Both the position numbers and the translations under genes were made by a program. The notes under the pieces are model-generated. The model was not told where the DNA came from. It searched no databases and saw nothing but the letters and a program-made list of their open reading frames with translations. Shown piece after piece: positions 2,986 to 36,974 of a stretch of 64,000 nt of DNA (positions are counted from its first letter, which is position 1; each line of letters begins with the position of its first letter). This stretch comes from a virus (lineage: Duplodnaviria > Heunggongvirae > Uroviricota > Caudoviricetes): the IMG/VR virus record IMGVR_UViG_3300030434_000006, positions 955 to 64,954 of that record; one strand, written 5' to 3'.

Positions 2986-3003
2986 TTTTACAAACTCCAT
3001 ACC
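2986..3003 (+). promoter_or_regulatory. late-operon conserved element TTTTACAAACTCCATACC (copy 1 of 5)
   Basis: 18-mer matching consensus AATTACARACTCCRTACC; ends 32 nt before the ATG at 3035. Confidence 0.5.
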
Positions 3004-3008
3004 CTCTG

Positions 3009-3034
3009 GCCTCTTAACTCTGAGAGGCTTTTTT
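3009..3034 (+). terminator. hairpin gcctct-N8-agaggc plus T6; its 3-prime arm overlaps the SD of the next gene
   Basis: perfect 6-bp stem and TTTTTT directly before the ATG at 3035; may act as an attenuator rather than a full stop. Confidence 0.4.
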
Positions 3035-3478
3035 ATGGCTGATACTATCTCTGTCAGCAGCAAGCTGTTTAAAGCGAAGCTGCTGGATTACTACTACATC
3101 CGTCGCGCCGAATCTTCCATCGGCAAGGGTTCCCGTTTCCAGATGGTAAAAGCCTACTGGGGCAAGTCAACACTGGTCAGCAGCAACGCCGCTGGTGGCT
3201 GGAACATTGCTGATATTCCCTCCACGTTCAGCAACGACAACCTGACCGGTAAATTCACTGAAACACCTCTGATTCTCACCAGTACCGGCGCGGATATCTC
3301 GATCACTATTCAGCTGGATGATTCCATTCTTCCGGAAGGTAAAGCCTATGACCTTAATACGCTGACGCTGGTGGACGCCGACGGCAACGCGTTTGCCGTG
3401 CTATGCCTGCAGCAGGACACCGTATTTCGTGGTAAGGCCTACCGCCTTATCGTCACCATTGAACAGAAAACGGCGTAA
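3035..3478 (+). CDS. tail protein preceding the tail fibre (P1 R-position)
   Basis: 147 aa, SD GAGAGG, directly upstream of the tail-fibre gene; positional analogy to P1 R-S-U. Confidence 0.3.
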   Translation: MADTISVSSKLFKAKLLDYYYIRRAESSIGKGSRFQMVKAYWGKSTLVSSNAAGGWNIADIPSTFSNDNLTGKFTETPLILTSTGADISITIQLDDSILPEGKAYDLNTLTLVDADGNAFAVLCLQQDTVFRGKAYRLIVTIEQKTA

Positions 3479-3483
3479 TCCAG

Positions 3484-6400
3484 ATGAGTGATAACGAAAT
3501 TACCGACATCGGCGTTATGTCAGGTAAGGCGTATGGTACCGCGCCGCTGTCGGCGGATATGCAGTATCTGGAAACCTACACCAGTTCCGCGCTAAACCGA
3601 AAACTGAAAGGCATTGTGCGATCTGGTTTTTACCTGGGCTTCTCGCCGGTCGCCGGTTCCGGGCTGAATGTCGTCATTACCTCGAAAGAGGCGGAAGGCG
3701 GGCAGGGCGCGGCCTCGATCGATGTGAACGCACACCAGATTACTGTGCAGCACCTGGCCGATCTAACACTACCGGTCGTGGCGGGTAAAACCACCCGTAT
3801 TGTGCTGGAAGCTAACTACAAGCTGGGTGTTAAGACTGACCAGGTAGATATTACCTCCACAGTTGAGGCCGCACGCGTTTTTGCGCAGGATATCTCTGTT
3901 GCGCTGAAGCCGAACCAGCTGGAGCTCTGCCGCGTGCTTGTGCCAACCGGTACCTCGCAGGTTACGCAGGCGATGATCGTCACCAACTACCGTATTAACC
4001 GGCAGGTCGGGATCACGCTGGATTCCATCTACACAAGTGACGACGAGCTGATTGCGGCCAACCTTAAGGGGCTGAAAATCCTCAAAGGCATGATCGATAA
4101 CAACATGGTCATTGCCAATAATGGCTCGGATATTCATGACAAAGCGATGTTCCGTAAGAACATCGAGCTGGATAAGCTGGTCAACGAGAAGCAGCTGATC
4201 GCCGGCGAGAATCTGGCTGATCTGCCAGACGTGCCGGAGGCCCGTGGCCACCTCGGCCTCGGTACCGCTGCACTGGCAGACCAGCAGACAAACCCAATGG
4301 ATATGACGGCAGGTGCGCTGATGGCCGTGGGCGCGTTTGGCGTGGGTGCGCCGTCATTCGTACTGGACAGCAAAATCACCTTACTCACTGAAGTGTCTGT
4401 GACTGAGCAGAATGCCTTCTGGACACTAAGCGGCACCTTCAGTGACGGCCCGATTGATCTTGGCAAAACCACGCAGACGTTGCGCGGCCAGCTATTCAAC
4501 ATGCGCCGGAAATATGATGCTGACGCTGCACTCCTGCAACTGCTGGTGGCGCAGGGTGGCATGATGTATCTGCGTCTGGCAGGTAAAGTTTCAGGCGACT
4601 GGGTGTGGTCCGGGCTATCAGCAGGTGCGGATAAAAACGGCTGGCGGAAGGTGATGGACAGCGCCAGCATGACGCTGGCGGACCTGGTTAAGGCGGGCGT
4701 GGCTAAAGCAGGCGATAACAACGATATCACCAGTACTAGTCAGCTGACCAATATCAACACGCCTAAGCTGACGGTATCTAAAAATCTCGACGTCGGTTCT
4801 CAAATCAGCGCGGGATTCCGTATTGGTGTGATCCGTTCTGAACCTTCTGTACCGTCAATGACGTTTTTGCGGACCGATCAGCCGGATGACAAACCTCCGG
4901 CATACGAAACAGACATCATGCAGATCGTTGGCCGTGTGGCGGCGGTGAGCGGTGATGCCTGGAGCGGAAGGATTCTCGGTGGCATAACTACCACGAACAT
5001 GACGCACGGCGGCGGCAAAATTTCGATTGATGCGCGTACATCAACAGGTGTGATTGCGGCTCGTCTTGCTCTCAACAGTGGAGACGGCTTAGCCACATTA
5101 CAGGGCGCTGGCGGACTGGCTATCACCGGTGGCGGTGGTCTGTCGTCTGACGGCGCGGCCCTTATCACTGCTGATATGATTGCGTTGCAGCTGAAGCCTA
5201 AAACTAAAGACAAAGCCTATTACCTCCGCGGGCGAAAAGCGGACAACACGCTGCACTGGTATATGGGCCAGTCTACGGACAGTACCGATACAGTGACTTG
5301 GGGTAACTCTATCCCGAATACGTGGCTGACACTTGCAGGCGACGGTACGGGTGAAACCAACGTTTCGACGATGAACTTCCGTAATAACGCCATTGTCGGT
5401 GGCAACCTTACTGTAGCTGGCGGGGCAGACTTTACCGGCCCCGTAAACGTGCTGGCGAAAGGTGCGACAGCCGTAGGCGATCTGACAAATGCTGCGCTGG
5501 TGGTTACTGGCAGCAGTAATGATGGCACTCAGGGGATCACGGTTAACAGCTTTGCGCCCACAGTCACATTCATTGACCGCGACGCAGACGCGGCAGGCTT
5601 CCGCTTAAGAGGCGATGGCAGCAGCCTGCGTCTTGACGTTGATGGCAGGGATAACGGCGTAACGTGGAATCAGAATATCGCGCTATTCAGCGATAAAGGG
5701 CATCTTGCATTAGGCAGCGGCAGTGACAGCACCAGCCGTATGCTGACACTTGGAAGCACCACGCCCGGAAAAGGCAATATGTCCGGAGCGTCGCAGATTG
5801 TTGCGATGGCATACGCAAATATCGGAGCAGATGCGACTACACGCGGCATTGGTTTCGGTGTGGAAATGTCAGTAGGTGACGGTAATACTGGGCAAACCGT
5901 GGCTGAAGTTGTTGAGTTTTGGGGTAACAGCAGTGTTGTTAACAAAAATGCAGCTGTAGCGCTCATGTCATCGTTCCGCGGGCATGACAAAGCCAGCCCT
6001 GTTATTGCAACGGCCTATGCCTTTGAGGGGCTACAGACGGCACGCGAAGGTTTAAACCGCTGGAACCTGTTTATGCAGGGAACCGCGCCAAACTATATGC
6101 GCGGACAGACCATCATTGGCGGAACGGATATCGCATTACCTGTTAGCAGTGTGGGACTGGATGTACGCACAGACGCGCGTTTCAAAGGGCAAGTGTCTAT
6201 TGAAAAGAAAGTCACTATTGCGGATGAAATTGTTCAAAAAAATGGTGGGTTTGCTTTCCGTGCCAAGTCTTCTGATTATGCGGCCATTCTCAGAAATGAT
6301 AATGAGAGTTTTTACTTACTCGTTACAAACAAAGGTGATACTGATGGTAAATATAATGACCTCCGACCCATCGCATTCAACCTGGCTAACGGCACGGTCA

Positions 6401-7278
6401 GAATGGAGCAAGGATTAGTTGTCCTTAAGTCAATTGATGTAGACGGCAGAATTACTGCCAGTAATTTAAATGCTATCAACCGTATTTCTATTGGAAATGC
6501 CCCTTCCGGAAATTTCAATAGTGCGTCCGGTTCAATCAATATAGGCGACTCGGATACAGGCTTGCTCTGCCCTGGTGATGGCATTCTTGATGTTTATGCA
6601 AATAACACTCTAACCTCTCGATTTACTCCTAATAATCTTCTTGTTTACGGCCAGATAACTACAAAAGATGCCAATGCATTACGCATTCGCGTTGGTGACA
6701 GCCAAATGAGTATGATTCACCGATTTGATGGCTCGAATTATTACATGCTGGTTACGAATGCAAATGATCCTGATGGCGGCTGGAATAATTTGCGTCCATT
6801 TTCATTTAATGGGAGTACCGGAGTTGTCACTATGTCGCACAATGTCAATGTCGGAGGGGCGTTAAGCGTCTCAGGAAGTGGCTGGTTTGGTGGCAACGTT
6901 AGCGTGCAATGGGGCGGTCGAGGGGTAACTTATCAGGAAAACGGCGACATTGTACGCATGGGCAATGTTACTGATGGATACACGATGTTCAGTAATTTCG
7001 GGGGTAGCACGAGTCTTTCCGGTGCATTGTCCTGGATTCGTAACCAGGGTTATAACGAAATGACCAGCAATGCTATGGCCGATTTCGGACGTGGCGGCCA
7101 GCAGTATTCTGGCGGTTCTGGCAATGGTACGGGACGGGCTTATGAGGTTCCCGCTGGGTGTGTTTTAACAGGAATTAACACCAACGTCTCAGACGGTCGC
7201 GGAATGGGTGTTTATTTCAGGCAGTTGATTGGGCGTAAAATTAATGGTGGTCAGTTTGGGATTGGGGATTTTGCATAA
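3484..7278 (+). CDS. tail fibre protein (P2 H / T4 gp37-type C-terminal domain)
   Basis: 1264 aa; C-terminal GDSDTGLLCPGDGILDVYANNTL matches P2 H GDNDTGFKQNGDGILDVYANSQR; duplicated DxDG..NNLRP.(A/S)FN modules; Gly/Thr-rich repetitive shaft. Confidence 0.8.
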   Translation: MSDNEITDIGVMSGKAYGTAPLSADMQYLETYTSSALNRKLKGIVRSGFYLGFSPVAGSGLNVVITSKEAEGGQGAASIDVNAHQITVQHLADLTLPVVAGKTTRIVLEANYKLGVKTDQVDITSTVEAARVFAQDISVALKPNQLELCRVLVPTGTSQVTQAMIVTNYRINRQVGITLDSIYTSDDELIAANLKGLKILKGMIDNNMVIANNGSDIHDKAMFRKNIELDKLVNEKQLIAGENLADLPDVPEARGHLGLGTAALADQQTNPMDMTAGALMAVGAFGVGAPSFVLDSKITLLTEVSVTEQNAFWTLSGTFSDGPIDLGKTTQTLRGQLFNMRRKYDADAALLQLLVAQGGMMYLRLAGKVSGDWVWSGLSAGADKNGWRKVMDSASMTLADLVKAGVAKAGDNNDITSTSQLTNINTPKLTVSKNLDVGSQISAGFRIGVIRSEPSVPSMTFLRTDQPDDKPPAYETDIMQIVGRVAAVSGDAWSGRILGGITTTNMTHGGGKISIDARTSTGVIAARLALNSGDGLATLQGAGGLAITGGGGLSSDGAALITADMIALQLKPKTKDKAYYLRGRKADNTLHWYMGQSTDSTDTVTWGNSIPNTWLTLAGDGTGETNVSTMNFRNNAIVGGNLTVAGGADFTGPVNVLAKGATAVGDLTNAALVVTGSSNDGTQGITVNSFAPTVTFIDRDADAAGFRLRGDGSSLRLDVDGRDNGVTWNQNIALFSDKGHLALGSGSDSTSRMLTLGSTTPGKGNMSGASQIVAMAYANIGADATTRGIGFGVEMSVGDGNTGQTVAEVVEFWGNSSVVNKNAAVALMSSFRGHDKASPVIATAYAFEGLQTAREGLNRWNLFMQGTAPNYMRGQTIIGGTDIALPVSSVGLDVRTDARFKGQVSIEKKVTIADEIVQKNGGFAFRAKSSDYAAILRNDNESFYLLVTNKGDTDGKYNDLRPIAFNLANGTVRMEQGLVVLKSIDVDGRITASNLNAINRISIGNAPSGNFNSASGSINIGDSDTGLLCPGDGILDVYANNTLTSRFTPNNLLVYGQITTKDANALRIRVGDSQMSMIHRFDGSNYYMLVTNANDPDGGWNNLRPFSFNGSTGVVTMSHNVNVGGALSVSGSGWFGGNVSVQWGGRGVTYQENGDIVRMGNVTDGYTMFSNFGGSTSLSGALSWIRNQGYNEMTSNAMADFGRGGQQYSGGSGNGTGRAYEVPAGCVLTGINTNVSDGRGMGVYFRQLIGRKINGGQFGIGDFA

Positions 7279-7634
7279 TGGCTAAGGCAAAACGTTCTTT
7301 TAAAAACGTTAAATTCGCTGGAATGAAATTACATGATAAGGCATTCCCTGCTAATGAGGAATTTGGCTATCCCGGCATGCCAGTAACTTGCTTTGTTGAT
7401 GATAAAGGCCGCGACTGGTATGACGAACGGGAAGACAAAAAGTGGGGTGCTATAGTTGCCACCTGGCCGGACGGTCATATCGGTGCCTTTGAAAAAGACG
7501 CCATGAATTTCATTCCGGTTGAAGGCTACACGGTATGGGAAGTTGATCCGGCAGACATGCCAGAAACTGACAAGATGAAGTTATTTGGTTTTTATTCTTA
7601 TGACGGCAAAGTTTTCACAAAGATTGCCGACTAA
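7278..7634 (+). CDS. putative tail fibre assembly protein / chaperone
   Basis: 118 aa; start overlaps the tail-fibre stop (TAATG) and a terminator follows; positional (P2 G / P1 U slot), shorter than classical Tfa. Confidence 0.4.
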   Translation: MAKAKRSFKNVKFAGMKLHDKAFPANEEFGYPGMPVTCFVDDKGRDWYDEREDKKWGAIVATWPDGHIGAFEKDAMNFIPVEGYTVWEVDPADMPETDKMKLFGFYSYDGKVFTKIAD

Positions 7635-7664
7635 GCGCAAAATTTCAAGCTAAAAAATCTCACT

Positions 7665-7695
7665 CACAGCGCTTCCGGGCGCTGTTTTTTTCTTT
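7665..7695 (+). terminator. rho-independent terminator
   Basis: cagcgc-ttccgg-gcgctg stem-loop followed by T7. Confidence 0.75.
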
Positions 7696-7704
7696 ACCTC
7701 TCTA

Positions 7705-7722
7705 AATTACAGACTCCGTACC
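7705..7722 (+). promoter_or_regulatory. late-operon conserved element AATTACAGACTCCGTACC (copy 2)
   Basis: ends 38 nt before the GTG at 7760. Confidence 0.5.
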
Positions 7723-7759
7723 CTCTCGCCACCTGATTACCAGGTGCTAAGGGGGGTAT

Positions 7760-8077
7760 GTGACCGATGTAGAAAAAATGCTCGCGGTTTCGCTTCTCCT
7801 GTCTTTGCTGAGTGGCACAGGCGTTTTCCTGCTGGGAGTGCGCGAATACCGGATCCGACCAACTGTATTCAACTTTACTACTGAGCTTGTGCTGGCGCTG
7901 ATTACTGGCCTCACGGCCTATTTCTTTGCCCGCCAGCAGGGACTGGATGAAATCGTGATTTACCTCGCTGTGTTAGTTGCAAGCAACAACTGGCGAGAAC
8001 TCTCAACTGTATTTAAAGAACGACTCATTGCGGCAATAAACGGCGTATTTGGGTCAAAAGGAGGCTCCGGCCCATGA
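7760..8077 (+). CDS. holin-like membrane protein (P1 LydA-position)
   Basis: 105 aa, GTG start after the SD AAGGGGGG; three predicted TM segments and a charged C-terminus; first gene of an operon whose sizes parallel P1 lydA-lydB-hdf-darA-ddrA-ddrB. Confidence 0.45.
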   Translation: MTDVEKMLAVSLLLSLLSGTGVFLLGVREYRIRPTVFNFTTELVLALITGLTAYFFARQQGLDEIVIYLAVLVASNNWRELSTVFKERLIAAINGVFGSKGGSGP

Positions 8078-8529
8078 TTGATTACCAGAACCTGTTTATC
8101 ACAGCGATGGCGGCGGCGATGGTTGTCGATCGCTGCGCCTTTGCCCGTAAAAAAGTGTCCCTGCTGGGATGTGGTGTGGCTACCGTGCGCGGCAACGCGC
8201 TGGCATTCCCGGTCCGCCTGAGCATTGCCTGTGCGGGCAAACTCGCGGGAGCCAAAATTGAGTACTGGCTGCGCGACAGCAACGATCCGACAGTGGTTAT
8301 CTCCGGAAAACAGCGCACGCTGGACCTCTCACCAAAGGGTGTGAGCGAAGAGTTTCTGCTGATCGATACGCGTTATCTTGAACCGGGCGAGTGGTCACTG
8401 ACAGTGCGCGTTACCCACGGTAACAGCCGCCTGAATCCGCTTTACCGCATTTTTCCACTGCAGGATACCGTCACCAGAACCTACCAGCTGAGCAAATCAG
8501 AGGAGGGGGATTACCGTGTCGAATCCTAA
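8074..8529 (+). CDS. hypothetical protein (LydB-position)
   Basis: 151 aa; ATGA overlap with the holin-like gene. Confidence 0.3.
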   Translation: MIDYQNLFITAMAAAMVVDRCAFARKKVSLLGCGVATVRGNALAFPVRLSIACAGKLAGAKIEYWLRDSNDPTVVISGKQRTLDLSPKGVSEEFLLIDTRYLEPGEWSLTVRVTHGNSRLNPLYRIFPLQDTVTRTYQLSKSEEGDYRVES

Positions 8530-9133
8530 AACCTACGTTCTGCTGAGCTTTGACGAGCTCAACGAGAAGGGGCTGGCAAAGCTGAAAAAGGCAATCGCCA
8601 CCAGCGGCTTTGAAGTAGCCAAAATTACCAACGCCGGCGCAGCCCGGAAAAAGGATGGCGTACTCACTAAAACCTTTAGCCTCACCGGCATGGACGAGCA
8701 GGTCATGACCGTGCAGGTCAACGACAGCGGCGACATTTCCGGCCTGAAACTGAACGGTAAAAACGTGCCGTTTACCCACGTCACCACGCTGCCCGACCTG
8801 GGACGCCAGCTGGCCGCGTTATTTAAAAAAGGCTCGACGGCATTCCAGAAGGCGCTGGCGCGCAAGATGGCACGCGCCGCCGCCAGCAAGGACGACTCAC
8901 CGCAGCCAAAACGCGGAGTGAAATCGTCCGTACAGCTGCTGGCTGAAGTGCGCCAGCAGCGTGACGCGTACAAAGCAGGTATTGAGGAAACTCAGAAGAA
9001 GGCCGACCAGCTGACGCGGGATGCCGACGCGGCACAGAAAAACGCGGACAGCTTACAGACAGAGCTTAATCAGGAGCAGGCGATCACCCGCCAGCTGAAA
9101 GAGCAGATCGCCCAACTGGAAGAGGCAGCATGA
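8516..9133 (+). CDS. coiled-coil protein (Hdf-position in a dar-like operon)
   Basis: 205 aa; Q/A/E-rich predicted coiled-coil C-terminus. Confidence 0.3.
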   Translation: MSNPKTYVLLSFDELNEKGLAKLKKAIATSGFEVAKITNAGAARKKDGVLTKTFSLTGMDEQVMTVQVNDSGDISGLKLNGKNVPFTHVTTLPDLGRQLAALFKKGSTAFQKALARKMARAAASKDDSPQPKRGVKSSVQLLAEVRQQRDAYKAGIEETQKKADQLTRDADAAQKNADSLQTELNQEQAITRQLKEQIAQLEEAA

Positions 9134-11631
9134 TGAATGAGATTTTAAGCAATCGTATGGTGCTGGACTTCCAGAGCCGCACACCGGGCGCAGTGCTGGC
9201 GCAGGCAGTTTATGACGGCCTGATGACCGGCAGTAGCGCGGATATGATGCTGGAAAGCGCCACGATCGACGATATCGATCACACTTACCTGGGAAGTGAA
9301 AGCCTGGTGCCGGATGCGATGTTTGAAGCAATCAGCACTGAGCGCATGCGTCTGGCGCAAACCATGCGCGCCTTTGTGAAAGCCTTAAACCGTGGCCTGA
9401 ACGGGACCAACATCAGTGCCGGCACTGACGATGCTGGTGCGGATACGACCGGGCAGAAAACCGTGGGCGGCGCGGTGATTGGTAAAGTGCGCCGTGTGGC
9501 CAGCATACCGGTTATGAGTGCGCTGATCCCATTATCAGACGGGCAAAGCGTGTCGCTGGTGTTCCACTCTCCGACCGCTGATAACGGCAAAATCCGCAAT
9601 CAGGATACGCTGGTGGCGTTTCAGTTCCTGATCAACAAGCGCGATGTGACGCACATTGTGGCCCCGATCGGCGGACGGGATGTATCGCTGCAGCAGGTCA
9701 CGCAGGCGCTTTCTAACCTGATCGAGAAGAACACCGGCAAGTTCACAAAGCAGAAGGACGCACAGACGAAGCTGCGCGCCGAAGTGGAAACCACGCAAGC
9801 CGAAACGGACAAGCTGGCGGAGCAGCAGTCTGCACTGCTGGAGGTGGTGGATGCACAAACCGCGCGCGTGCAGATGCAGCAGGATAATGAGCAGACGCTG
9901 CGCGGCAAAGTCGCGGCACAGCGCCAGATTAATGCTGACCTTACCGGACAGCTGGCGGCGCTGCAGCAGGCGAAAGCCAGTGAGCCTGAGAGCACGGACA
10001 CTTTCAGCGATCGCACTATCCAGGTTAAAGCGCGCCTGAACATGGACGGACAGGCGACGCTGAGCAATGGCGCGACGGTCCGATATCACAGCTATGACCA
10101 TGACGGAGAGCTTAAAGGCAAAGTGATCATCATCGAAGCGGACGGGACCACGTTTGAAATGCCGTCCAAATCCAGCCAGGGCGCAGAGATGGGTAAAGCG
10201 GCTACCAAACTGCTGAAAGCCTACCGCACCGGCGCGGCGGAGCCATATCGCATTGCGGCAGGTGCGGCAGCGCCGGTAGAGCCAGAGCCAACGCCTGGCC
10301 AACGTAAGCTGTCAGCGCGTGCCACTGAAATGACCAAAGGCGAAGGTGCGGAGCGTGACGGGCGCCTGCTTATGTCTGTTGAGGGGCCAGAGGACTTCAT
10401 GCGTTATGCAGAGAAGGAGCTGGATAAAGATTTTACTAACTCTCAGACCGAAGAAGCAGGCGAGAAAGAGGGTGATATTGCGCTGTTCTATGGAGTGGAT
10501 CGTGGGGATAAATCGCTCTTTATGGCAGCCTGGAAGCAGCTCAAATCCGACTGGATGAATGGCGCTGAGTTACCTGTAAAAGAACCCGCACCACAGCCAC
10601 AACCTGAACCACAGCCAGAGCCACAACCACAACCACAGCCAGAGCCAGAGCCAGAGCCACAACCGGAACCAGTTACACCCGCAGCCGTCTGGCGCTATGC
10701 GCTGGTAAACCGGCCAGTGGGTATTGGCGCGGTACCGCCTGAATATGCTTCCGTTGCAGACCAGCCAGCAGAAGGCCAGCCATACAGCGGCTTTGCGCGT
10801 AACGGCATTATTTCCTACGACCGTCCACTTACTGACAAAGAGATTGCTGACTTTGAGCTGAAGCTGATCCCGACGCATGCGGATCTCGATGCGCTGGCCG
10901 TAACCGTGGCCGACAAGATGAGCGATTACTCCGCGCAGTATCTGGAAATGTCCGCAGAAGACCCGGACACCTATGCAAAACAGGTGCGTATGGTTGCCCG
11001 TAAAAACCTGACTGGCGTGGCCTACCCTGAAGGCGAAGACCTGACCTACTTCAAACAGGCCATTAATGCCAGATTGCAGACCCTGGCCGCAGGTGAGCCA
11101 AAGCAGGAAGAGACAGACGTGACTGACGACCGTGAAAACACTGACCCATTCTGGATGGCGGCGAAACGCCTGGGCGATCTCGTAGGCTGGGCGTCTGACC
11201 TGGTAAATGCCTGGGCCGAAGCGCTGGGTTATGGCAGTGAGCAGATCAAGCAGGCAGCGGACTACGTGGAAGCTAATCAGAGTCCTGAGTATCTGAAGGC
11301 AGCGGAGACCGCGATGATTACCGGCAAGCGTATTCCGCTGGTGGAGGAACTGAGCACAGGAGAGCCACAGCCAGAACCGCAGCCAGCACCGGAACCAGTG
11401 CCGGAAGCTGACACCGAAGCACAGAAGGCGATTGATTACCTCCAGGGACTGACCGCGCTCGATACCGACGATATGGACGTGATCCGCGCTGGGCGTAGCC
11501 AGGTCCGTGAAGCCATCGCAGCACTGACGGCCGCGGGCGTGTTCGATGAAAACGAGTCCCTGGTCAATGACGCCGTGCAGCACCTGAGCGATCTGCTGGT
11601 GGCCGTGCAGCGTAATGGGGTGGCCGCATGA
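9130..11631 (+). CDS. large internal-head-protein candidate (DarA-position) with PQPE linkers
   Basis: 833 aa; two proline-rich linkers (PQPEPQPEPQPQPQPEPEPEPQPEP and EPQPEPQPAPEPVPE); the size and order match P1 darA. Confidence 0.35.
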   Translation: MMNEILSNRMVLDFQSRTPGAVLAQAVYDGLMTGSSADMMLESATIDDIDHTYLGSESLVPDAMFEAISTERMRLAQTMRAFVKALNRGLNGTNISAGTDDAGADTTGQKTVGGAVIGKVRRVASIPVMSALIPLSDGQSVSLVFHSPTADNGKIRNQDTLVAFQFLINKRDVTHIVAPIGGRDVSLQQVTQALSNLIEKNTGKFTKQKDAQTKLRAEVETTQAETDKLAEQQSALLEVVDAQTARVQMQQDNEQTLRGKVAAQRQINADLTGQLAALQQAKASEPESTDTFSDRTIQVKARLNMDGQATLSNGATVRYHSYDHDGELKGKVIIIEADGTTFEMPSKSSQGAEMGKAATKLLKAYRTGAAEPYRIAAGAAAPVEPEPTPGQRKLSARATEMTKGEGAERDGRLLMSVEGPEDFMRYAEKELDKDFTNSQTEEAGEKEGDIALFYGVDRGDKSLFMAAWKQLKSDWMNGAELPVKEPAPQPQPEPQPEPQPQPQPEPEPEPQPEPVTPAAVWRYALVNRPVGIGAVPPEYASVADQPAEGQPYSGFARNGIISYDRPLTDKEIADFELKLIPTHADLDALAVTVADKMSDYSAQYLEMSAEDPDTYAKQVRMVARKNLTGVAYPEGEDLTYFKQAINARLQTLAAGEPKQEETDVTDDRENTDPFWMAAKRLGDLVGWASDLVNAWAEALGYGSEQIKQAADYVEANQSPEYLKAAETAMITGKRIPLVEELSTGEPQPEPQPAPEPVPEADTEAQKAIDYLQGLTALDTDDMDVIRAGRSQVREAIAALTAAGVFDENESLVNDAVQHLSDLLVAVQRNGVAA
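10590..10672 (+). repeat. tandem hexanucleotide repeat (CCACAG/CCAGAG/CCACAA)n encoding the PQPE linker
   Basis: about 14 near-identical 6-bp units read directly in the sequence. Confidence 0.8.
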
Positions 11632-12023
11632 GCCTGACCGCACTGCAAAAGCTGGACTTAGCCGACCAGCTGGACGAACTGATCATTAAAGCGCCGACCG
11701 TGAAGGGGCTGGACCTGCTGGATCTCAATGACCAGATGGAGGCGATCATGCTCCAGCTGGGTTATGGCGCTGCGCCAGCACCCGCCACCAGCGAACCGGC
11801 ACCCGCGCCGGTCACTGAGCCACAGCCGGATTCCGTGAAGGAAGATCAGCCCGTTCCCGAAGTGGTTACTGACTTTCTGGCCGGTAAGTTCACCAGCCAG
11901 GCGCAGCTGGATTTTGTTGAGACGCTGCGCCGTGTCGGGGACTACATCGGCGTTTATCTGGAGCTGGACGACGCGAGACAACAGACCGCCAGCTGGATAG
12001 CTGCCAGCGGCCTCGCTGCTTAA
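11628..12023 (+). CDS. hypothetical protein (DdrA-position)
   Basis: 131 aa; ATGA overlap with the previous gene; contains a PAPAPATSEPAPAPVTEPQP linker. Confidence 0.3.
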   Translation: MSLTALQKLDLADQLDELIIKAPTVKGLDLLDLNDQMEAIMLQLGYGAAPAPATSEPAPAPVTEPQPDSVKEDQPVPEVVTDFLAGKFTSQAQLDFVETLRRVGDYIGVYLELDDARQQTASWIAASGLAA

Positions 12024-12027
12024 TCAA

Positions 12028-12052
12028 CACCCCGTTTCGGCGGGGTTTTTTA
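12028..12052 (+). terminator. rho-independent terminator (possibly partial)
   Basis: ccccg-tttcgg-cgggg followed by T6. Confidence 0.55.
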
Positions 12053-12066
12053 TTCCCGGAATCATA

Positions 12067-13446
12067 ATGCTGAACGAGAAATTACGAAATCTGCTGAGCG
12101 ATGCTGGCAGCATATTTGCCCTGATTGGGCTGGTGGGCTCACTGCGCAAAGCGCAGACCACAACGGGGCGATCGTCATACGTCGTGACCGGTAAAGGGCA
12201 GGAAGTAAAGACGGCGTTTAAGGTGGTGGATGCGCGCCACCTGATTATCTCTAATAACCTCGACGGCACCATAAACCCGCTTTTCCCGGCTGAGCTGCAG
12301 CCACGCGACCGCACGCGCCTGACCAGTAAAGTGCAGGTCTCCAAAATCGCGGGCAACCTCCGACCGGCGAAGCTGACCGATTCAGGCATGAGCAGCCACG
12401 GCGCGCCAATCGTGGGCGCTGATAACGTGGTTGAGTCGGGCAATGGCCGCTCGATGGGGATCACCCGCGCTTATGAGCAGGGACAAGCCGACGAGTACCG
12501 GCAGTATCTGATCGACCACGCAAAAGACTACGGCCTGAAAGCGTCGGATATCGCGCAGATGGACATGCCGGTACTGGTGCGTGAGCGCATTACCGACGTT
12601 GACCGTGCGCAGTTTGCGAAAGACTCCAACCTCTCCGATTTGCAGGAAATGGCGGCGAGTGAGAAGGCCTTTGTCGATGCCGAAATGCTCGATGAGCGTC
12701 TGATGGCCATCTTCAATCCGTCCGACGACGGCAACCTTCTGGCACGCTCAAACGACGGCTTTATCCGGGCATTCATGAAAGAGATTGGCGACACAGCGAC
12801 CGCAGGCCTGCTCACCGAAGATGGGCGCCCGACGAAGCAGCTGATTGACCGTATGCAGAATGCGATCTTTGCCCGTGCCTACAAAGACGAGCGGCTGGTT
12901 AAGCTGGTATCCGAAGAGCCGGACCCGGAAATGCGCAATATCCTGACAGCGCTCAACACGGCGGCAAGCGAGTTTGCACAGATGCAGATGCTATCCGGCG
13001 ATGTTCACCGGCAGGCCGTCACCGGGCTGGTGGACGGGGTGCAGTCGGTGGATGGTCTCGATCAGCAGGCTATCGCCGCGTTGCAGGATGCTATCAAGCT
13101 GGTTCGCCAGGCTAAAGACAGCGGGCAGGCCATACAGGAAGTGCTGGCGCAACAGGGGCTGTTTGAGGAATCCAGTAAAGAGGCCGAAGCGCTGGCGCTG
13201 TTTATCGTGGCAAACAATCGCAGTGCGAAACGCATAGGGACCGCGTTTAAAAAGATGGCGCAGAAGATTAACGACGAGCTGTTACACCAGCAGCAGGCGC
13301 TGGGGGATATGTTCGGCGGCGGTGATCTGACGCTGACCGACGTCCTCACCGCTGTATCCGGGGAGATCGAAGAGGAGTTTGGCGAAGGTAAAGGCATAAA
13401 TTTTGCCATGTTCGAATCCGCAGCCGTACCTGAGAGCGTTTCGTAG
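12067..13446 (+). CDS. hypothetical protein (DdrB-position, last gene of the dar-like operon)
   Basis: 459 aa, acidic; no motif recognised. Confidence 0.3.
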   Translation: MLNEKLRNLLSDAGSIFALIGLVGSLRKAQTTTGRSSYVVTGKGQEVKTAFKVVDARHLIISNNLDGTINPLFPAELQPRDRTRLTSKVQVSKIAGNLRPAKLTDSGMSSHGAPIVGADNVVESGNGRSMGITRAYEQGQADEYRQYLIDHAKDYGLKASDIAQMDMPVLVRERITDVDRAQFAKDSNLSDLQEMAASEKAFVDAEMLDERLMAIFNPSDDGNLLARSNDGFIRAFMKEIGDTATAGLLTEDGRPTKQLIDRMQNAIFARAYKDERLVKLVSEEPDPEMRNILTALNTAASEFAQMQMLSGDVHRQAVTGLVDGVQSVDGLDQQAIAALQDAIKLVRQAKDSGQAIQEVLAQQGLFEESSKEAEALALFIVANNRSAKRIGTAFKKMAQKINDELLHQQQALGDMFGGGDLTLTDVLTAVSGEIEEEFGEGKGINFAMFESAAVPESVS

Positions 13447-13465
13447 TACCCCAGCATTTTTAATA

Positions 13466-13489
13466 TGGCCACGCAATGTGGCCTTTTTC
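13466..13489 (+). terminator. rho-independent terminator
   Basis: ggccac-gcaat-gtggcc followed by T5. Confidence 0.7.
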
Positions 13490-13497
13490 CCATCGGA

Positions 13498-13515
13498 AAT
13501 TACAAACTCCATACA
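13498..13515 (+). promoter_or_regulatory. late-operon conserved element AATTACAAACTCCATACA (copy 3)
   Basis: ends 36 nt before the endolysin ATG at 13552. Confidence 0.5.
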
Positions 13516-13551
13516 GTCAGGCTCTTCAACAACACAGAGAGCGGAACCATC

Positions 13552-14930: not shown

Positions 14931-15293
14931 GCTTTTGAGTCCTTGATATTTGGGACATGGACATGCCTTAATTCCTTGCTACTGAGAATTAAGAGATGAT
15001 GTCCTCCACGAGACAGCAGGTGCAATGCCTGAGTCAGTGGTTTAAAAGCAACTTCCGACCAAAGAAGTTGTACGGCACAACGCCGGTGTGGTCTCGACAA
15101 CCACACAAAGTTGTTTAAAAATCGTCTGCGCTAACAGGCGATTTTTTTTCGTCCTCACATTCAGTCGCCAAACTGAATTTGAGCGCGGATAATAAACGCG
15201 ATCCGATAAAGGATCAACACTCAGTTTTTTCCTAATTTTTAGTTTTGACTAAAACGTGCCCCAGTTTTCAGGGCACGATTTCTTTTCCCCTTC

Positions 15294-16295: not shown

Positions 16296-16367
16296 AAATA
16301 CCTCATATTCACAGGGTTATGCCCCGCAGAGCGGCGGCAGCGCTGGCGATAGCCTGCGTGAAAAGAT

Positions 16368-16385
16368 GGTAGGGAGGTTGTAATT
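16368..16385 (-). promoter_or_regulatory. late-operon conserved element AATTACAACCTCCCTACC (copy 5, minus strand)
   Basis: 16/18 match to the consensus; 73 nt upstream of the ATG at 16295 on the minus strand. Confidence 0.4.
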
Positions 16386-16426
16386 TATCGGGGTAGCGAT
16401 TCTTCGATTATCAGTGGATCTAATAA

Positions 16427-16442
16427 CCAGTGGATAATTTCA
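16427..16442 (-). promoter_or_regulatory. TGAAATTATCCACTGG element (family copy d)
   Basis: 15/16 identical to the copies at 36835 and 57099; contains a DnaA-box-like TTATCCACT. Confidence 0.4.
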
Positions 16443-16504
16443 TATTAGAAATATTGAATTTATCCGCGCCGGGGATATAGTGTGCGCGCCACTGTAAAAC
16501 AGTG

Positions 16505-16980: not shown

Positions 16981-17043
16981 GAAGGTTGGATTAGCCGCGC
17001 AGGATCAGCTCATGTGCGGCTATGAATAATATTCAGCCTGACT

Positions 17044-18741: not shown

Positions 18742-18820
18742 AGTTATACGCCCTATTTAATAAACCTTTAGAATCAGATAAAGCATATTCGCTTTATGCA
18801 ATCTGAGGAAAAGTTACACA

Positions 18821-28441: not shown

Positions 28442-29731
28442 ATGACTACACTCGCTCCACTCCAGCAGCTGCAAAATCTCCCTGTATGCAACGTCGATGA
28501 CGATGTTCTGCACCAGGCGTTTGTCACCGCTTACAGCCAGCTTAATTCCATCCGTAAACGCCTGACGCTTGATGACCTGGAGCTGCGCCTCCTTGATAAC
28601 TGCACGAACGCTCTGGAGCAGATCCAGATCGATATCGGCATGCGGCTCAATCATGAGGCTGATACCTACAACCTGCTATTAGACACACTGGAGCAGGTAC
28701 AGCAGCAGCTGGGTGCGCAGTCCGCACTGGTCAACGAAGTAACGAAAATTCGTCTCGATGCCGAGAGCGCCATTGAAGAGGCCCGTGAGTCGGCTACTCA
28801 GCGAGTGCTGGAGGCGGACAACCGCGTAATCAATGCAGAGAATCAGCTTGAGGGTATCAGGTCTGCCCTGACCACCGCGCAGCTGGCGTTTACCTCTGTC
28901 TCACAGGAATATGAACAGTATCGCCGCAAGAATCCTGAGCGCCTGGCGCGAGACCTGAATGAGCGTGACAAAACCATTTCACAGCAGCGCGCCGATCGCA
29001 AAAAAGACAGCCTTAAGCGGCAGGAGCTACAGAGCAAACTCAATATCGCGGATAAGGTTGTCGGAGAAGAGCGCCGCCAGCGCGCCGCAACAGCCAATGA
29101 CCTGATGAAGACGACCGCTCTTTATAACCACCTGAAGGAACGCGTTGAATTTCATGATGGCCGGGAAGATGTGCAGCAGTTCCTTCTTCAGCTGCCGGAT
29201 GGCTCTGGCGACGTGGGCTGCTACATCTACAACTTCCACTTTGGCCTGAGCGTTTTCCACGGTGTCCGGGATGTGTCTATCGAGACGGCTGATTTCCACT
29301 TCCAGATCCGTACCGCGATGATGCTGGCAATGGACGTGGTGCCGGGGATATGGGGCAACCCGGTCTTCCGCCTGCTGCCTGAGCTTGCGCCGATGTGGGA
29401 CACGGCTATCAATGACGAGCTGCACACACGGATCATGAAGCGTCTGGCGCAGGATTTCCCGCGTCTTCACCAACGCATTCTTGACGGCAAGGCTGCGCCT
29501 GTTTCCGAGCTGGCCATACCGACACGCCTCCTTAACGTTCTGACAAAGGCCGGGTATGAGACGGTTGCAGATGCTGGTGGTGAGTTACCTGACGAGCTGG
29601 CAAAAGTGAGGGGGCTGAGTGAGGCCTCAGTCAATGATATTCGTGCTGCCGTGAACAGCTGGTGCATAAAGTGGGCGCAGGCGAACGGCGACATTGAGAA
29701 CATCAGAAACCCCAAAGTAAAACGCCGCTAA
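28442..29731 (+). CDS. coiled-coil protein with C-terminal RNAP alpha-CTD-like helix-hairpin-helix domain
   Basis: 429 aa; long Q/E/R-rich heptad region; C-terminal IPTRLLNVLTKAGYETVADAGGELPDELAKVRGLSEASVNDIRAAV parallels the RpoA CTD (RSANCLKAEAIHYIGDL...LGKKSLTEIKDVL). Confidence 0.4.
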   Translation: MTTLAPLQQLQNLPVCNVDDDVLHQAFVTAYSQLNSIRKRLTLDDLELRLLDNCTNALEQIQIDIGMRLNHEADTYNLLLDTLEQVQQQLGAQSALVNEVTKIRLDAESAIEEARESATQRVLEADNRVINAENQLEGIRSALTTAQLAFTSVSQEYEQYRRKNPERLARDLNERDKTISQQRADRKKDSLKRQELQSKLNIADKVVGEERRQRAATANDLMKTTALYNHLKERVEFHDGREDVQQFLLQLPDGSGDVGCYIYNFHFGLSVFHGVRDVSIETADFHFQIRTAMMLAMDVVPGIWGNPVFRLLPELAPMWDTAINDELHTRIMKRLAQDFPRLHQRILDGKAAPVSELAIPTRLLNVLTKAGYETVADAGGELPDELAKVRGLSEASVNDIRAAVNSWCIKWAQANGDIENIRNPKVKRR

Positions 29732-30160: not shown

Positions 30161-30224
30161 GCAGGTTTAGCTCAGTCGGTAGAGTGTTCCATTGTCGGCG
30201 GTTCAATTCCGTCAACCTGCACCA
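30161..30224 (+). pseudogene. truncated tRNA-like element (acceptor, D-arm and T-arm present; no anticodon arm)
   Basis: 7-bp acceptor GCAGGTT/AACCTGC, D-arm TAGCTCAGTCGGTAGAGT, T-arm GGCGG-TTCAATT-CCGTC, then ACCA; only 11 nt where the anticodon arm should be. Confidence 0.35.
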
Positions 30225-31583: not shown

Positions 31584-32423
31584 GTGAAAACTAAATTAGT
31601 AATGGCTTCACTGGCAATTGGATCAGCTCTGCTGCTGTCCGGCTGCGAGCGCGTGACCGTTCCGACCGGCTATGTAGGCGTAAAAGTTGAGCTTTATGGT
31701 GATGATAAAGGCGTTCAACAGCAAGAAGTTGGTACCGGGCGTTACTGGCTATCCATGAACGAAGAAATTTATCAATTTCCAACATTTAATCAGCTGTACA
31801 ACTATGATGCACCGTTTGTATTTCAGACAGCAGACTCAATGGATATTAAGGCCAAAGTAGGTGTTGAGTATTACGTTGACCCGACTAAAGTCACGTCAAT
31901 TTTCCAGAAATACCGAAAAGGCGTTGAAGAAATAACCGAAATTAACATTCGCCAGAACATTAGCGATGCGTTAATTAATCACTCTGGCCGTATGGATATT
32001 AATTCCCTTGCTGCTGGTGGCAAAACTGAACTGCTAAATGCAGTTACAGCTGATTTGAAAGCTAAACTCGATCCGCTGGGGATTCGCATCGTTAAGCTGT
32101 CATGGATTAGCGATCTCGAATACCCGCAAAAGGTTAAAGAGTCGATTAACGCTAAGATTGAAGCAACTCAGCGCGCTCTGCTGCGTGAAAACGAAATTCA
32201 GCAGTCAAAAGCGGAAGCACAAAAGGCTATCGAGATCGCCCGTGGTGAAGCGGATGCAACGATGCTGCACGCTAAAGCTGAATCAGCTGCTATCGCTATG
32301 CGTGGTGAAGCCCTGCGCCAGAACCCTGAAGTTTTGCAGCTGGAGGGCATTAATAAGTGGAACGGTACACTGCCACAATACATGGGTAATGGCACACCAA
32401 TGCCATTTATCAGCGTTAAGTAG
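31584..32423 (+). CDS. SPFH/band-7 domain lipoprotein
   Basis: 279 aa; signal peptide with lipobox LLSGC; stomatin/HflK-like core and a C-terminal coiled coil. Confidence 0.65.
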   Translation: MKTKLVMASLAIGSALLLSGCERVTVPTGYVGVKVELYGDDKGVQQQEVGTGRYWLSMNEEIYQFPTFNQLYNYDAPFVFQTADSMDIKAKVGVEYYVDPTKVTSIFQKYRKGVEEITEINIRQNISDALINHSGRMDINSLAAGGKTELLNAVTADLKAKLDPLGIRIVKLSWISDLEYPQKVKESINAKIEATQRALLRENEIQQSKAEAQKAIEIARGEADATMLHAKAESAAIAMRGEALRQNPEVLQLEGINKWNGTLPQYMGNGTPMPFISVK

Positions 32424-33391: not shown

Positions 33392-33393
33392 TA

Positions 33394-34376: not shown

Positions 34377-34728
34377 CAGCCTGATACATGATCTACCGGG
34401 TGAAGATGCTCACCCGGCACCGGCAGCAATCCACACATCGCATAAACTCTAAGTAAAAAATTCGGGTTTACAGTGATAATCCCTCTGAAAACTATATTTA
34501 TAGGCGGTCCAGTTATGCGGTATCGAGCGTACTGAAATGCACTGCCAGTACTGCGATCGTCATTCACTCATACAGCCACCAGCCAGTTTAGGCATGCGCC
34601 GTTCGCCCCCGGAATCGTCTCTAAAACGCACTTATACCTGCTAATAATGGCGATATTTAAACCATTACCACTTGTGCAGATTATACAATCCTTAGAATTG
34701 CTTGTAGTAAATTCAAGCGGAGCAGTAT

Positions 34729-35136
34729 ATGGAGCAAAAGGTGAGCAGTATAGAGGTGGCCGATCTGTTGATTCGCAGAAAGGACTACATGACCGTGGCC
34801 GAAGTCACTAAGCTGGTGGAAACGGAATACCCGCACCTGTTGGTGAACACCGGCATTATCTCGAATATCCTGCGCTCCTTTGTCCGTTCGCCGTTCGCAC
34901 AATGCCGGGTACATCCCGATGCCTATCCCCGGCAGTATCGCCTGGAGGCCATGAACGGCTACATCTTCAAGGTGCGGGGAAGAAAGGATCTTAATTACGA
35001 CTCGCTGTGTGTGGAAAGCGCCACAAAGCGTGTGCTGCAGAAGAAGGAAATGGAACAGCTGTCGGTATGCGCGCTGGCGCGGCAACTGATGGATATGTGC
35101 AGACGGGGAAGGATGGAAAATGCCCCGCTCATGTGA
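34729..35136 (+). CDS. hypothetical protein, possible small DNA-binding regulator
   Basis: 135 aa; same orientation as, and upstream of, the pacA-like gene. Confidence 0.25.
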   Translation: MEQKVSSIEVADLLIRRKDYMTVAEVTKLVETEYPHLLVNTGIISNILRSFVRSPFAQCRVHPDAYPRQYRLEAMNGYIFKVRGRKDLNYDSLCVESATKRVLQKKEMEQLSVCALARQLMDMCRRGRMENAPLM

Positions 35137-35151: not shown

Positions 35152-35694
35152 TTAGCCTGAAACTCTGTGGCGTTGCAGCTTTAAGGCGCTTGATGTAACA
35201 CCTTTGGGTGCTTCTTCTACACGCTTGGATGAATTGTCATCCGGATTATGAGTAACGCTAACCGCCTCCGGCTGACTCTCGGCCTGTGCTGGTTGAGCAG
35301 CTTCGCTGGAAGGCTTCTCAGCCTGTACCGGTTGAGCCTTTTCAGCTGGTGACGCTCCAACGACAGCGGCTGCTGGTTCTGCCACTGGTGCCTGTACCGG
35401 CTGCATACCCGGCGTCGTTGGAGTGATTTCACCCAGCGTGACGCTGATTAGCGAAAGCAGACGCTGCAGCCGCTCACGCTTGGTCATTGTCATGAACGTA
35501 TCACCATACGTCTCTTCCATCAGCGCGAGGATTGGTGCAAGCCCCATCTGCTCCACTGCATAGCCCGAACGAATAACGTTTATCACAAAGGCGCGCTTTG
35601 CGGGATTCGTCTTCAGCTTGTTATAGTCTTCGAGCATAGAGCGGCTGAACAGCCCGCCTTCCTCCAGCCCGGTAAATTTAATCACCTGTGCCAT
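35152..35694 (-). CDS. parR: ParR-like partition adaptor
   Basis: 180 aa directly downstream of parM, separated by 2 nt; structured N-terminus, then a disordered P/A/Q-rich C-terminus. Confidence 0.45.
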   Translation of the reverse strand: MAQVIKFTGLEEGGLFSRSMLEDYNKLKTNPAKRAFVINVIRSGYAVEQMGLAPILALMEETYGDTFMTMTKRERLQRLLSLISVTLGEITPTTPGMQPVQAPVAEPAAAVVGASPAEKAQPVQAEKPSSEAAQPAQAESQPEAVSVTHNPDDNSSKRVEEAPKGVTSSALKLQRHRVSG

Positions 35695-35696
35695 AG

Positions 35697-36824
35697 TTAG
35701 CCCTTCTCGTTGGTCCGGCTACGAATATCGCTTACAGACGCCGCACTACTGATATCAGCCAGAATATCGGCCTCAGAGGCCTGCAGCGCCAGATAGACGC
35801 CACGCGCAATAGCCATTTCAGGGTTATTCGGCACAACAACAACATCATGCCAGCCATCGGTGTGATCGGTCAGTCCTGGCAGCTTGCCAGCGATATAGTT
35901 AGCGCCGCCACCAACAACCAGAACAACGTCAACATCGCGGGTATTACGGTGAAGCGCACGCACGTCCTGCCAGATTTTCTCTGCCAGCTCAGATGCGGCC
36001 TGGTTGATGACTTCACTGATATCAATACGCTTCGATTTAGCGCTTTCCAGACGGGAGCCGATATAGCCCTGACGAATGATGGCATCAACGCTATCAACGC
36101 TGAGATCGGATGCGCCGAACGATTTACCCAGCTTTTCTTCAAACTCTGGCAGCAGCGCATGTACACGCTCGATCATCTTCTGAACGCCGTGCTCATAGCT
36201 GGCCTTTTTCACAGGCATCAGGTCTTTATCAACCAGGGCGATATCACAGGTAAAGCGTCCCAGGTCTACTACCAGCGTCTGCTCAGCGTCAGCCAGCTCC
36301 GGATTATCAGCCTGTGCCGAAACGATGGCAGGAACGGCTTCAGGGAATACTTCGACGTGAATGATGTTAGCCGGTTCGCTACCGTCGCGGTAATTGGTGA
36401 CAGGCGTCTTCAGGCTGGCAACCTTCTCACGGATACGGGCTTCGTTAATCACACCCATAGCGCTGTAGAACTGATTCACCGGCAGCGTTTCACCAATGAT
36501 CACATCACGGCCGCCGAGGCCAGCACGGTGCAGTGCATCGGCAATCAGGACGCGGTGAGCGGGTGAGACCTGATAGTTAGGGTCGCAGGTGTCATACAGG
36601 TCATAGCCTTTCTTCATGACGGTGTAGGCGCGTTCTTTGCCGCTGGCATCCGTTGTCAGCCACGTTGACTGGGATTCAGCCGCGAAAGACTGCTGGTGGC
36701 CTTCCAGTATCAGTGAAGGGGTGACAGAGGTGATCCAGCGCCCTGTGCCATCTTCAGCATAAGTCAGCGCTACGTTGCCAGAGCCTGCGTCTACTGCCAC
36801 TAAAACAGCTTTATTCTTAGTCAT
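35697..36824 (-). CDS. parM: ParM/StbA actin-like plasmid segregation ATPase
   Basis: 375 aa; N-terminal VAVDAGSGNV phosphate-1 motif and actin-fold spacing (DLGRFTCD, VVGGGANY). Confidence 0.65.
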   Translation of the reverse strand: MTKNKAVLVAVDAGSGNVALTYAEDGTGRWITSVTPSLILEGHQQSFAAESQSTWLTTDASGKERAYTVMKKGYDLYDTCDPNYQVSPAHRVLIADALHRAGLGGRDVIIGETLPVNQFYSAMGVINEARIREKVASLKTPVTNYRDGSEPANIIHVEVFPEAVPAIVSAQADNPELADAEQTLVVDLGRFTCDIALVDKDLMPVKKASYEHGVQKMIERVHALLPEFEEKLGKSFGASDLSVDSVDAIIRQGYIGSRLESAKSKRIDISEVINQAASELAEKIWQDVRALHRNTRDVDVVLVVGGGANYIAGKLPGLTDHTDGWHDVVVVPNNPEMAIARGVYLALQASEADILADISSAASVSDIRSRTNEKG

Positions 36825-36834
36825 TTAATTTTAT

Positions 36835-36850
36835 CCAGTGGTTAATTTCA
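36835..36850 (-). promoter_or_regulatory. TGAAATTAACCACTGG element 10 nt upstream of the parM start (family copy b)
   Basis: identical to the 57099..57114 copy. Confidence 0.45.
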
Positions 36851-36931
36851 TACTACGAACGAGGAATCAAAGTACCACATATTCCGGTTTTGTCCATTAG
36901 TAAGGCACCAAAACGGCGCGTTAGCTGCGAT

Positions 36932-36953
36932 AGTGATCATTAATGTGATCACT
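36932..36953. promoter_or_regulatory. palindrome AGTGATCA-TTAATG-TGATCACT with two GATC sites
   Basis: perfect 8-bp arms; lies in the parM / pacA divergent intergenic region. Confidence 0.4.
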
Positions 36954-36956
36954 ACA

Positions 36957-36974
36957 AATTACAGACTCCATACC
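36957..36974 (+). promoter_or_regulatory. late-operon conserved element AATTACAGACTCCATACC (copy 4)
   Basis: ends 35 nt before the pacA-like ATG at 37010. Confidence 0.5.

Follow-up and report, generated by a model that had tools for sequence, protein, structure and literature searches.

A repeated, non-palindromic element before the late operons of a P1/D6-like Pantoea phage-plasmid, very probably a diverged Lpa-dependent late promoter

Late promoters that depend on the activator Lpa are a textbook feature of phage P1. Here we describe a short repeated element, found before the late operons of a relative of P1, in a stretch of 64,000 nucleotides (positions 955 to 64,954 of the virus record IMGVR_UViG_3300030434_000006) which we refer to as the window. 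The window is a P1/D6-like temperate phage-plasmid (plasmid prophage) of Pantoea. Plasmids of about 90-95 kb from Pantoea agglomerans and P. eucalypti match most of it at about 90% identity; the plasmid of Pantoea sp. PSNIH1 is 83% identical to it, and remoter relatives occur in Leclercia and Citrobacter. Its gene order is that of P1 and D6, namely pmgA, bplA, 16; R, S, U; lydA, lydB, hdf, darA, ddrA, ddrB; lyz; pro; prt; darB ... lpa ... pacA, pacB; c1; cre ... ref, mat. The genes, operons and copies of the element that are discussed below are as follows, where each copy is given as its box, spacer and -10 hexamer.

2985..3005, plus strand: candidate late promoter of the R-S-U operon, at the position of P1 LPs; box ATTTTACAAAC, TCCA, TACCCT; -10 ends 29 nt before ATG 3035
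3035..7634, plus strand: tail-fibre operon (R, S, U-like), presumably served by promoter 2985-3005; phrog match and synteny with P1 R-S-U
7704..7724, plus strand: candidate late promoter of lydA-lydB-hdf-darA-ddrA-ddrB, at the position of P1 LPdar; box AAATTACAGAC, TCCG, TACCCT; -10 ends 35 nt before GTG 7760
7760..13446, plus strand: lysis and dar operon (lydA, lydB, hdf, darA, ddrA, ddrB-like), presumably served by promoter 7704-7724; P1/D6 gene order
13497..13517, plus strand: candidate late promoter of the endolysin gene, at the position of P1 LPlyz; box AAATTACAAAC, TCCA, TACAGT; -10 ends 34 nt before ATG 13552
16366..16386, minus strand: candidate late promoter of pro, at the position of P1 LPpro; box AAATTACAACC, TCCC, TACCAT; -10 ends 70 nt before ATG 16295
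18782..18802, minus strand: possible degenerate late promoter of the portal gene prt, uncertain; box ATTGCATAAAG, CGAA, TATGCT; 40 nt before TTG 18741
34729..35136, plus strand: lpa homologue, 135 aa, presumed late promoter activator; tblastn, Pfam, phrog and AlphaFold model
36956..36976, plus strand: candidate late promoter of pacA-pacB, at the position of P1 LPpac; box AAATTACAGAC, TCCA, TACCAT; -10 ends 33 nt before ATG 37010
37010..39795, plus strand: pacA-pacB packaging operon, presumably served by promoter 36956-36976
47909..47929, minus strand: variant, candidate late-type promoter of a 138-aa accessory open reading frame (ORF) at 47462-47878 (minus strand), here called orf138; box AAATCACAAAC, CGCT, TATCCT; 30 nt before the ORF
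63621..63641, plus strand: variant, candidate late promoter of the mat operon, at the position of P1 LPmat; box AAAGTACAAAC, CGCT, TACAGT; the mat GTG is at 63771 and the gene runs off the window

A preliminary description of this DNA had reported five near-identical 18-mers, four of them ending 32-38 nt and the fifth 73 nt before a late gene, with all five oriented with their genes, and these observations were borne out. When the window was searched with the pattern AATTACARACTCCRTACC, allowing up to 3 mismatches, exactly five matches were obtained (2986-3003, 7705-7722, 13498-13515 and 36957-36974 on the plus strand and 16368-16385 on the minus strand), compared to a mean of 0.05 in 100 dinucleotide-preserving shuffles, none of which reached five. 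All five lie between genes and each is oriented toward the next gene. Re-measurement placed the end of the 18-mer 32, 38, 37 and 36 nt before the start codons at 3035, 7760, 13552 and 37010, respectively, and 73 nt before that of pro (16295). The gene identities proposed previously agree with PHROG profiles, in which the genes following the five copies match an R-like tail-fibre assembly protein (phrog_2032), a LydA-type holin (phrog_1527), an endolysin (phrog_90/17029), the Pro head-processing protein (phrog_1801) and the PacA terminase (phrog_1711).

A relaxed pattern, TACA[AG][AC]C-N4-TAnnnT, gave six matches where 0.33 were expected, all of them intergenic and co-oriented with the next gene. 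This pattern added one variant copy, at 63621-63641 (plus strand), and a scan by position weight matrix (PWM), which the preliminary description had proposed, added another, at 47929-47909 (minus strand), so that seven promoter copies are recognized in the window. The original count of five therefore stands for the strict copies and falls short for the whole set. Similarly, the statement that no copy precedes an early or accessory gene holds for the strict 18-mer and fails for the variants, one of which precedes the accessory orf138 (the other precedes the mat operon). Two further PWM matches were set aside as probable chance occurrences: TTTTACAATTTCCTTACGAT at 49465-49484 (minus strand), which scores 13.5 against about 30 in real copies, faces a bidirectional terminator, has no downstream gene and might instead be a relic, and a weak match at 31804-31823 (minus strand) within an ORF of the other strand. 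In the part of the 90% relative's genome that lies outside the window, the same variant was found at three places, preceding mat, the capsid gene and an operon that contains a PAAR gene, and late promoters would thus number about ten per genome. P1 has 11 late promoters with the Lpa-binding inverted repeat (PMC10695390).

The conserved block exceeds the 18-mer by 1 nt (an A) upstream and by 2 nt downstream, and the full unit consists of an 11-bp box, AAATTACARAC, a 4-nt spacer (TCCn in the strict copies) and a TAnnnT -10 hexamer, without a -35. The -10 hexamer is made up of the last four bases of the 18-mer and the next two, and conforms to TAnnnT in seven of seven copies. Within the box, which would occupy about -27 to -17, the core ACAnAC is invariant, and the spacer is mostly TCCn or CGCn. 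A consensus scan of positions 2500-17200 called no sigma70 promoter with a -35 at the R, lydA, lyz and pro copies, and none was recognized by eye at the remaining copies, pacA included. The preliminary description had seen neither a -35 nor a -10 of sigma70 type; the lack of a -35 was upheld for the four scanned copies, whereas a -10 is present in every copy.

The element is conserved where its surroundings are not. Orthologous promoters are kept in the 90% and 83% relatives, where the sequence just upstream is unrelated in the case of lydA, lyz, pacA and orf138, and the substitutions that do occur in the relatives' promoters leave ACA, AC and TA...T untouched. The lyz promoter is identical in the relatives despite unrelated upstream flanks, the R promoter is also kept at a further locus (L094), and the pacA promoter is kept before PacA homologues of 72-98% identity. 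The sequence of the mat promoter is found before mat in the 90% relative and in Citrobacter as well. The degenerate prt block is kept in Pantoea relatives, and in D6 the -10 of prt is likewise TATGCT and is preceded by a good box.

Exact matches to the element were also sought in one genome per species (596 Gb). This broad scan returned 107 stretches, nearly all of which carry a single chance match and belong to unrelated phyla. Nine of the 107 also encode homologues of late proteins of the window, and those whose source could be identified are contigs of Pantoea and Enterobacter, mostly of about 87-93 kb (Enterobacter sp. BRE11, Pantoea sp. GD03673, Ca. P. borealis, P. conspicua and others). 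In these, the element is correctly oriented, and 33-36 nt separate the end of its 20 nt from the start of pacA, lydA, lyz or R, even at 72% PacA identity.

The window encodes a homologue of the P1 activator. A tblastn search with P1 Lpa identified the ORF at 34729-35136 (25% identity, expectation value (E) 1e-11), and its product matches Pfam family PF25716 (BPP1_LPA) with 103.8 bits against a cutoff of 35 (E 1.1e-29; residues 3-131 aligned to profile positions 2-129 of 131) as well as phrog_1704, 'Lpa-like transcriptional activator' (E 5e-53). Its orthologue is named 'late promoter activating protein' by PGAP. We found no solved structure for the Lpa family. In an AlphaFold model (32-sequence alignment, predicted local distance difference test score 83), residues 7-75 form three helices and a beta-hairpin wing, after which comes a long helix at the C terminus. 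Foldseek matches to this model were weak, all with E >= 0.02, and nearly all of them, the best-aligned included, are winged-helix domains (PadR, Fur, MarR, FOX). The protein is thus predicted to be a winged-helix protein from a consistent topology and uniform matches, without a significant single match. In P1 and D6, lpa adjoins pacA, whereas in the window a ParM/StbA-type partition module of two genes on the opposite strand (35152-36824, minus strand) sits between them.

When the Lpa proteins are aligned, the helix predicted to recognize DNA (residues 41-53) has the sequence (V/I)(T/S)N(I/V)xRxF in the clades of Pantoea, D6 and Citrobacter and DVYLRLK(A/S)I in that of P1. The helix types differ by clade as the box types do, and box type and helix type therefore co-vary.

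The late promoters of P1, as annotated in AF234172, consist of the 9-bp box AAGTnACTT, 4 nt and a TAnnnT -10 without a -35, and end 19-86 nt before the start codon. The set comprises LPs, LPdar, LPlyz, LPpro, LPpac, LPmat, LP23, LP26, LPsit, LPpmgL and LPhot, which stand before genes such as R (LPs), lydA (LPdar), lyz, prt-pro, pacA, mat, 23, 26 and pmgC-sit. P1 and the window have in common a box that ends 4 nt before the -10 (about -25 to -17), about ten copies per genome, the same operons, a syntenic genome and an activator of the Lpa family. In position, the strict copies correspond to LPs, LPdar, LPlyz, LPpro and LPpac. The -10 of P1 LPpac, TACCCT, is also that of the window's R and lydA copies.

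The boxes themselves differ, in that the P1 box is a 9-bp inverted repeat and the window box is 11 bp long and asymmetric, and the two activators have differing putative recognition helices. The P1-type box AAGTNACTTNNNNTANNNT has no match in the window even with 1 mismatch allowed, and a search of P1 for the window-type box found none. Measured by the features that define the P1 promoters, the window has the -10, the missing -35 (in the four scanned copies), the late operons and the lpa gene but lacks the inverted repeat. The left parts of the boxes are nevertheless alike, AA(G/A)TnAC in P1 (AAATGAC in LPsit and LP26) versus AAATTAC in the window, with this shared part placed 2 bp farther from the -10 in the D6/Pantoea type than in P1. 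An alignment of the whole P1 box to the Pantoea box, base by base, was abandoned, as only the left seven bases (AARTnAC) align, with the 2-bp shift. The likeness of these seven bases is a hint, at the level of sequence, of common ancestry.

In D6, a D6-like E. coli plasmid and Citrobacter pCfr13-1, whose Lpa proteins are 41%, 41% and 36% identical to that of the window, AAATCACAnAC or AAAKTACARAC followed by N4 and a -10 was found before lyz, R, lydA, prt, pmgB-sit, ddrB, pacA, mat and darB. D6 and the D6-like E. coli plasmids carry AAATCACAnAC-N4-(T/C)AnnnT before lyz, R, lydA, prt and pmgB-sit, and their recognition-helix motif is TNIxRxF, as in the window. The strict Pantoea copies differ from those of D6 by T for C at box position 5, by a strongly kept TCCn spacer and by residing in another host genus. 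Twenty sites from three lineages give the consensus AAAT(T/C)ACAnAC (T/C)(C/G)Cn TAnnnT. The C-A of ACA does not vary among them, nor do the A at -11 and the T at -7, and the first A of ACA and the AC hardly vary. Judged by sequence, the window copies belong to the D6-type class of putative late promoter as derived in this analysis. The D6 GenBank record (MF356679) holds no promoter features, and no description of late promoters in D6 or in Pantoea P1-like plasmids was found in full-text literature other than the D6 and P1 genome papers. The non-palindromic box is unannotated in the sources searched, and the D6 genome paper may hold a prior description.

Taken together, the element is very probably an Lpa-dependent late promoter of this P1/D6-like Pantoea phage-plasmid, used by host RNA polymerase with phage Lpa and built on a diverged, non-palindromic box. 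The idea of a phage-specific, activator-dependent late promoter, like that of P1 in kind and unlike it in sequence, had already been put forward in the preliminary description, and the P1 positions, the Lpa-family gene and the conservation amid diverged flanks all argue for it. What had been called an analogy to Lpa-dependent promoters is a likeness that goes further, to homology, since the presumed activator is itself an Lpa homologue. P1 Lpa is described, in a passage of PMC1891329 that cites Hansen et al. (2003), as an activator that binds DNA in a sequence-specific manner and works together with SspA, a host protein associated with RNA polymerase. By extension, once C1-type repression of the prophage is lifted, the early gene lpa would be expressed, and its winged-helix product would bind the box at about -27 to -17, taking the place of a -35 contact. 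Lpa and host SspA would then recruit or activate the host sigma70 holoenzyme, which would use the TAnnnT hexamer and start transcription about 7 nt downstream of it. The leader that results would measure about 22-28 nt at each of R, lydA, lyz, pacA and orf138, and would be longer at pro (about 63 nt) and at mat (about 122 nt).

Several points weigh against this interpretation. Every functional statement, for the window phage and for D6 alike, rests on homology to P1, and the role proposed for SspA presupposes this protein in the Pantoea host. The -10 hexamers are poor in comparison to TATAAT except for TA...T. The box AAATTACARAC is not an inverted repeat, unlike the P1 box, and the mode of binding may differ. 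One variant copy precedes an accessory gene, orf138, which has no homologue in P1 or D6, and not a morphogenesis gene, and the site before prt is a degenerate match, with 5 of 10 box positions.

The proposed layout resembles that of T4 middle promoters, which combine a MotA box at -30 with a sigma70 -10 and require AsiA. In both, the box of a phage activator stands in for the -35 contact, and the -10 read by the host sigma70 holoenzyme is an ordinary one. MotA and AsiA are, however, unrelated to Lpa, the T4 box differs in position and sequence, and the T4 co-factor is a phage anti-sigma protein instead of host SspA. Positive control of phage late genes by way of host polymerase is also shared with P2/P4 (Ogr/Delta) and with lambda Q, but Ogr and Delta are zinc-finger activators with a dyad near -55, lambda Q is an antiterminator acting at a single promoter, and neither system has the layout with a box at -22 or many dispersed late promoters.

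The asymmetry of the box, set against the 9-bp palindrome of P1 Lpa, and the separation of lpa from pacA by the ParM-type module would also fit late promoters that are used by host polymerase but activated by some other phage or host factor, with the Lpa homologue acting on another target. We regard this as unlikely: among P1, D6, Citrobacter and Pantoea the type of box goes with the clade of Lpa, the late operons yielded no other repeated motif, and the position of the box and its spacing to the -10 equal those of P1. It is less likely still that the elements are not promoters but operators, bound by a C1-like or other repressor or by another DNA-binding protein. P1 C1 operators are likewise 17-bp, asymmetric, oriented and multi-copy sequences that lie beside promoters. 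They precede early and immunity genes (ref, ssb, c4, kilA, dmt, ban, lpa and others), however, and not R, lydA, lyz or pacA, whereas the copies in the window occupy the exact positions of the P1 late promoters, with an invariant TAnnnT, fixed spacing and fixed orientation to the gene. Their sequence is also unrelated to ATTGCTCTAATAAATTT, the P1 C1 operator consensus.

Strong conservation over 18-20 bp without a -35 recalls the promoters of single-subunit polymerases, and AATTACAGACTCC-ATAC is loosely similar to AATACGACTCACTATA, the T7 promoter; a phage-encoded or alternative RNA polymerase or sigma factor, the second option of the preliminary description, could in principle recognize elements of such a T7-like format. 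This option is not supported and we consider it highly improbable. No RNA polymerase or sigma gene is annotated in a complete 94-kb relative, and in the window, whose ORFs were scanned in part, the only related call is a domain like the C-terminal domain of the RNA polymerase alpha subunit (alpha-CTD) in a PmgS-like head protein. Across lineages, conservation reduces to the box and TAnnnT at sigma70 spacing, and an Lpa homologue is encoded. No more credible is an RNA-level motif in 5' leaders, acting in processing, stability or translation of read-through transcripts, as might be imagined from elements lying 30-70 nt before start codons and from hairpins after several copies: the block has no conserved pairing, no Rfam family covers it (none at any promoter site at the gathering threshold), terminator-like hairpins directly 5' of the lydA and lyz copies would leave little read-through RNA that contains it, and what is conserved between lineages is TAnnnT at fixed spacing and not a structure.

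Additional features lie close to the candidate promoters. Terminator-like hairpins stand upstream of two of them, at 7666-7685 before the lydA copy, which it would insulate, and at 13467-13483 just before the lyz copy. At R, a terminator-like hairpin followed by T6 (3008-3029, plus strand) lies between the -10 and the start codon, and its 3' arm holds the Shine-Dalgarno sequence. The predicted transcription start (about 3012) falls inside the 5' arm, so that the hairpin would form only in RNA reading through from the upstream operon. D6 has an analogous hairpin against the Shine-Dalgarno sequence before R. The 129 nt that lead from the late promoter of mat to its start codon contain a terminator-like hairpin (63730-63746, plus strand), which is followed by TTTCGCCTTTT and overlapped by a 78-aa ORF (63668-63904). 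This hairpin may terminate transcription within the leader or be a target of antitermination.

Between pro and prt, on the strand opposite both, lies a C4 antisense RNA (16586-16673, plus strand; Rfam RF01695, 81.8 bits), accompanied by a sigma70-like promoter at 16454-16481 and, downstream, by a 91-aa ORF at 16705-16980. An immunity region of immI type is thus placed inside the head-gene cluster of the window, which is not so in P1, and because this region of the other strand keeps pro apart from prt, pro has a candidate promoter of its own. A direct repeat, ATCCACTG(G/A)T(T)A, occurs in two copies 16 nt apart (16412-16435, minus strand) in the interval from the late promoter of pro to the promoter of c4, and further copies of ATCCACTG are found at 59345-59352 and 62263-62270; the repeat may be a repressor operator. 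The sequence ATCCTTAGAATT lies about 30 nt upstream of lpa (34688-34699, plus strand), has a 1-mismatch copy near c1 (41096-41107, plus strand) and also precedes lpa in Citrobacter pCfr13-1. It is a candidate C1-type operator but is not enriched in the window, with 4 matches compared to 3.07 expected.

Within pacA, TGATCA hexamers occur five times at exact 12-nt steps (37174, 37186, 37198, 37210 and 37222) and again at 37245 and 37387, and two more, 12 nt apart (36934 and 36946), lie directly 5' of the pacA late promoter. The cluster in pacA looks like a P1-type pac site with Dam sites, and Citrobacter has four GTGATCA repeats at the matching position. Elsewhere, the head protein mentioned above (28442-29731, plus strand) is a PmgS-like morphogenesis/scaffolding protein (phrog_1660) whose alpha-CTD-like domain is C-terminal (PF03118, 29 bits, residues 351-404). 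A 61-nt tRNA-like sequence (30161-30221, plus strand) scores 47.4 bits with the Rfam tRNA model without being called by ARAGORN; its acceptor, D and T arms are seemingly intact and its anticodon arm is seemingly truncated, and it lies near tciA/TerB-like genes, where tRNA genes stand in P1 and D6.

For the Pantoea and Enterobacter phage-plasmids, which are little studied, these data provide a map of putative late transcription, with seven promoters in the window and three in the rest of a close relative's genome. For purposes of annotation, late promoters are otherwise what would be expected in a relative of P1, and it is the recognition sequence that differs. A further reading, on which we hold the balance to be even, is that the Lpa family has split into two classes of DNA specificity, that of P1, with the palindrome AAGTnACTT, and that of D6, Citrobacter and Pantoea, with the asymmetric AAATYACAnAC placed 2 bp farther from the -10, through a switch in the recognition helix (DVYLRLKAI versus TNIxRxF). 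If this is true, P1-like and D6-like plasmid prophages that reside together would have mutually orthogonal late-gene circuits, and the inverted repeat of P1 would be inessential to the action of Lpa because only the left half, AARTnAC, is common to both classes. Together with the elements of D6 and Citrobacter, the Pantoea element suggests at least two Lpa box specificities that track the putative recognition helix. Such a natural series of specificity swaps could help to dissect activation by Lpa and SspA, to predict cross-talk between co-resident P1-like plasmids and to supply orthogonal pairs of promoter and activator.

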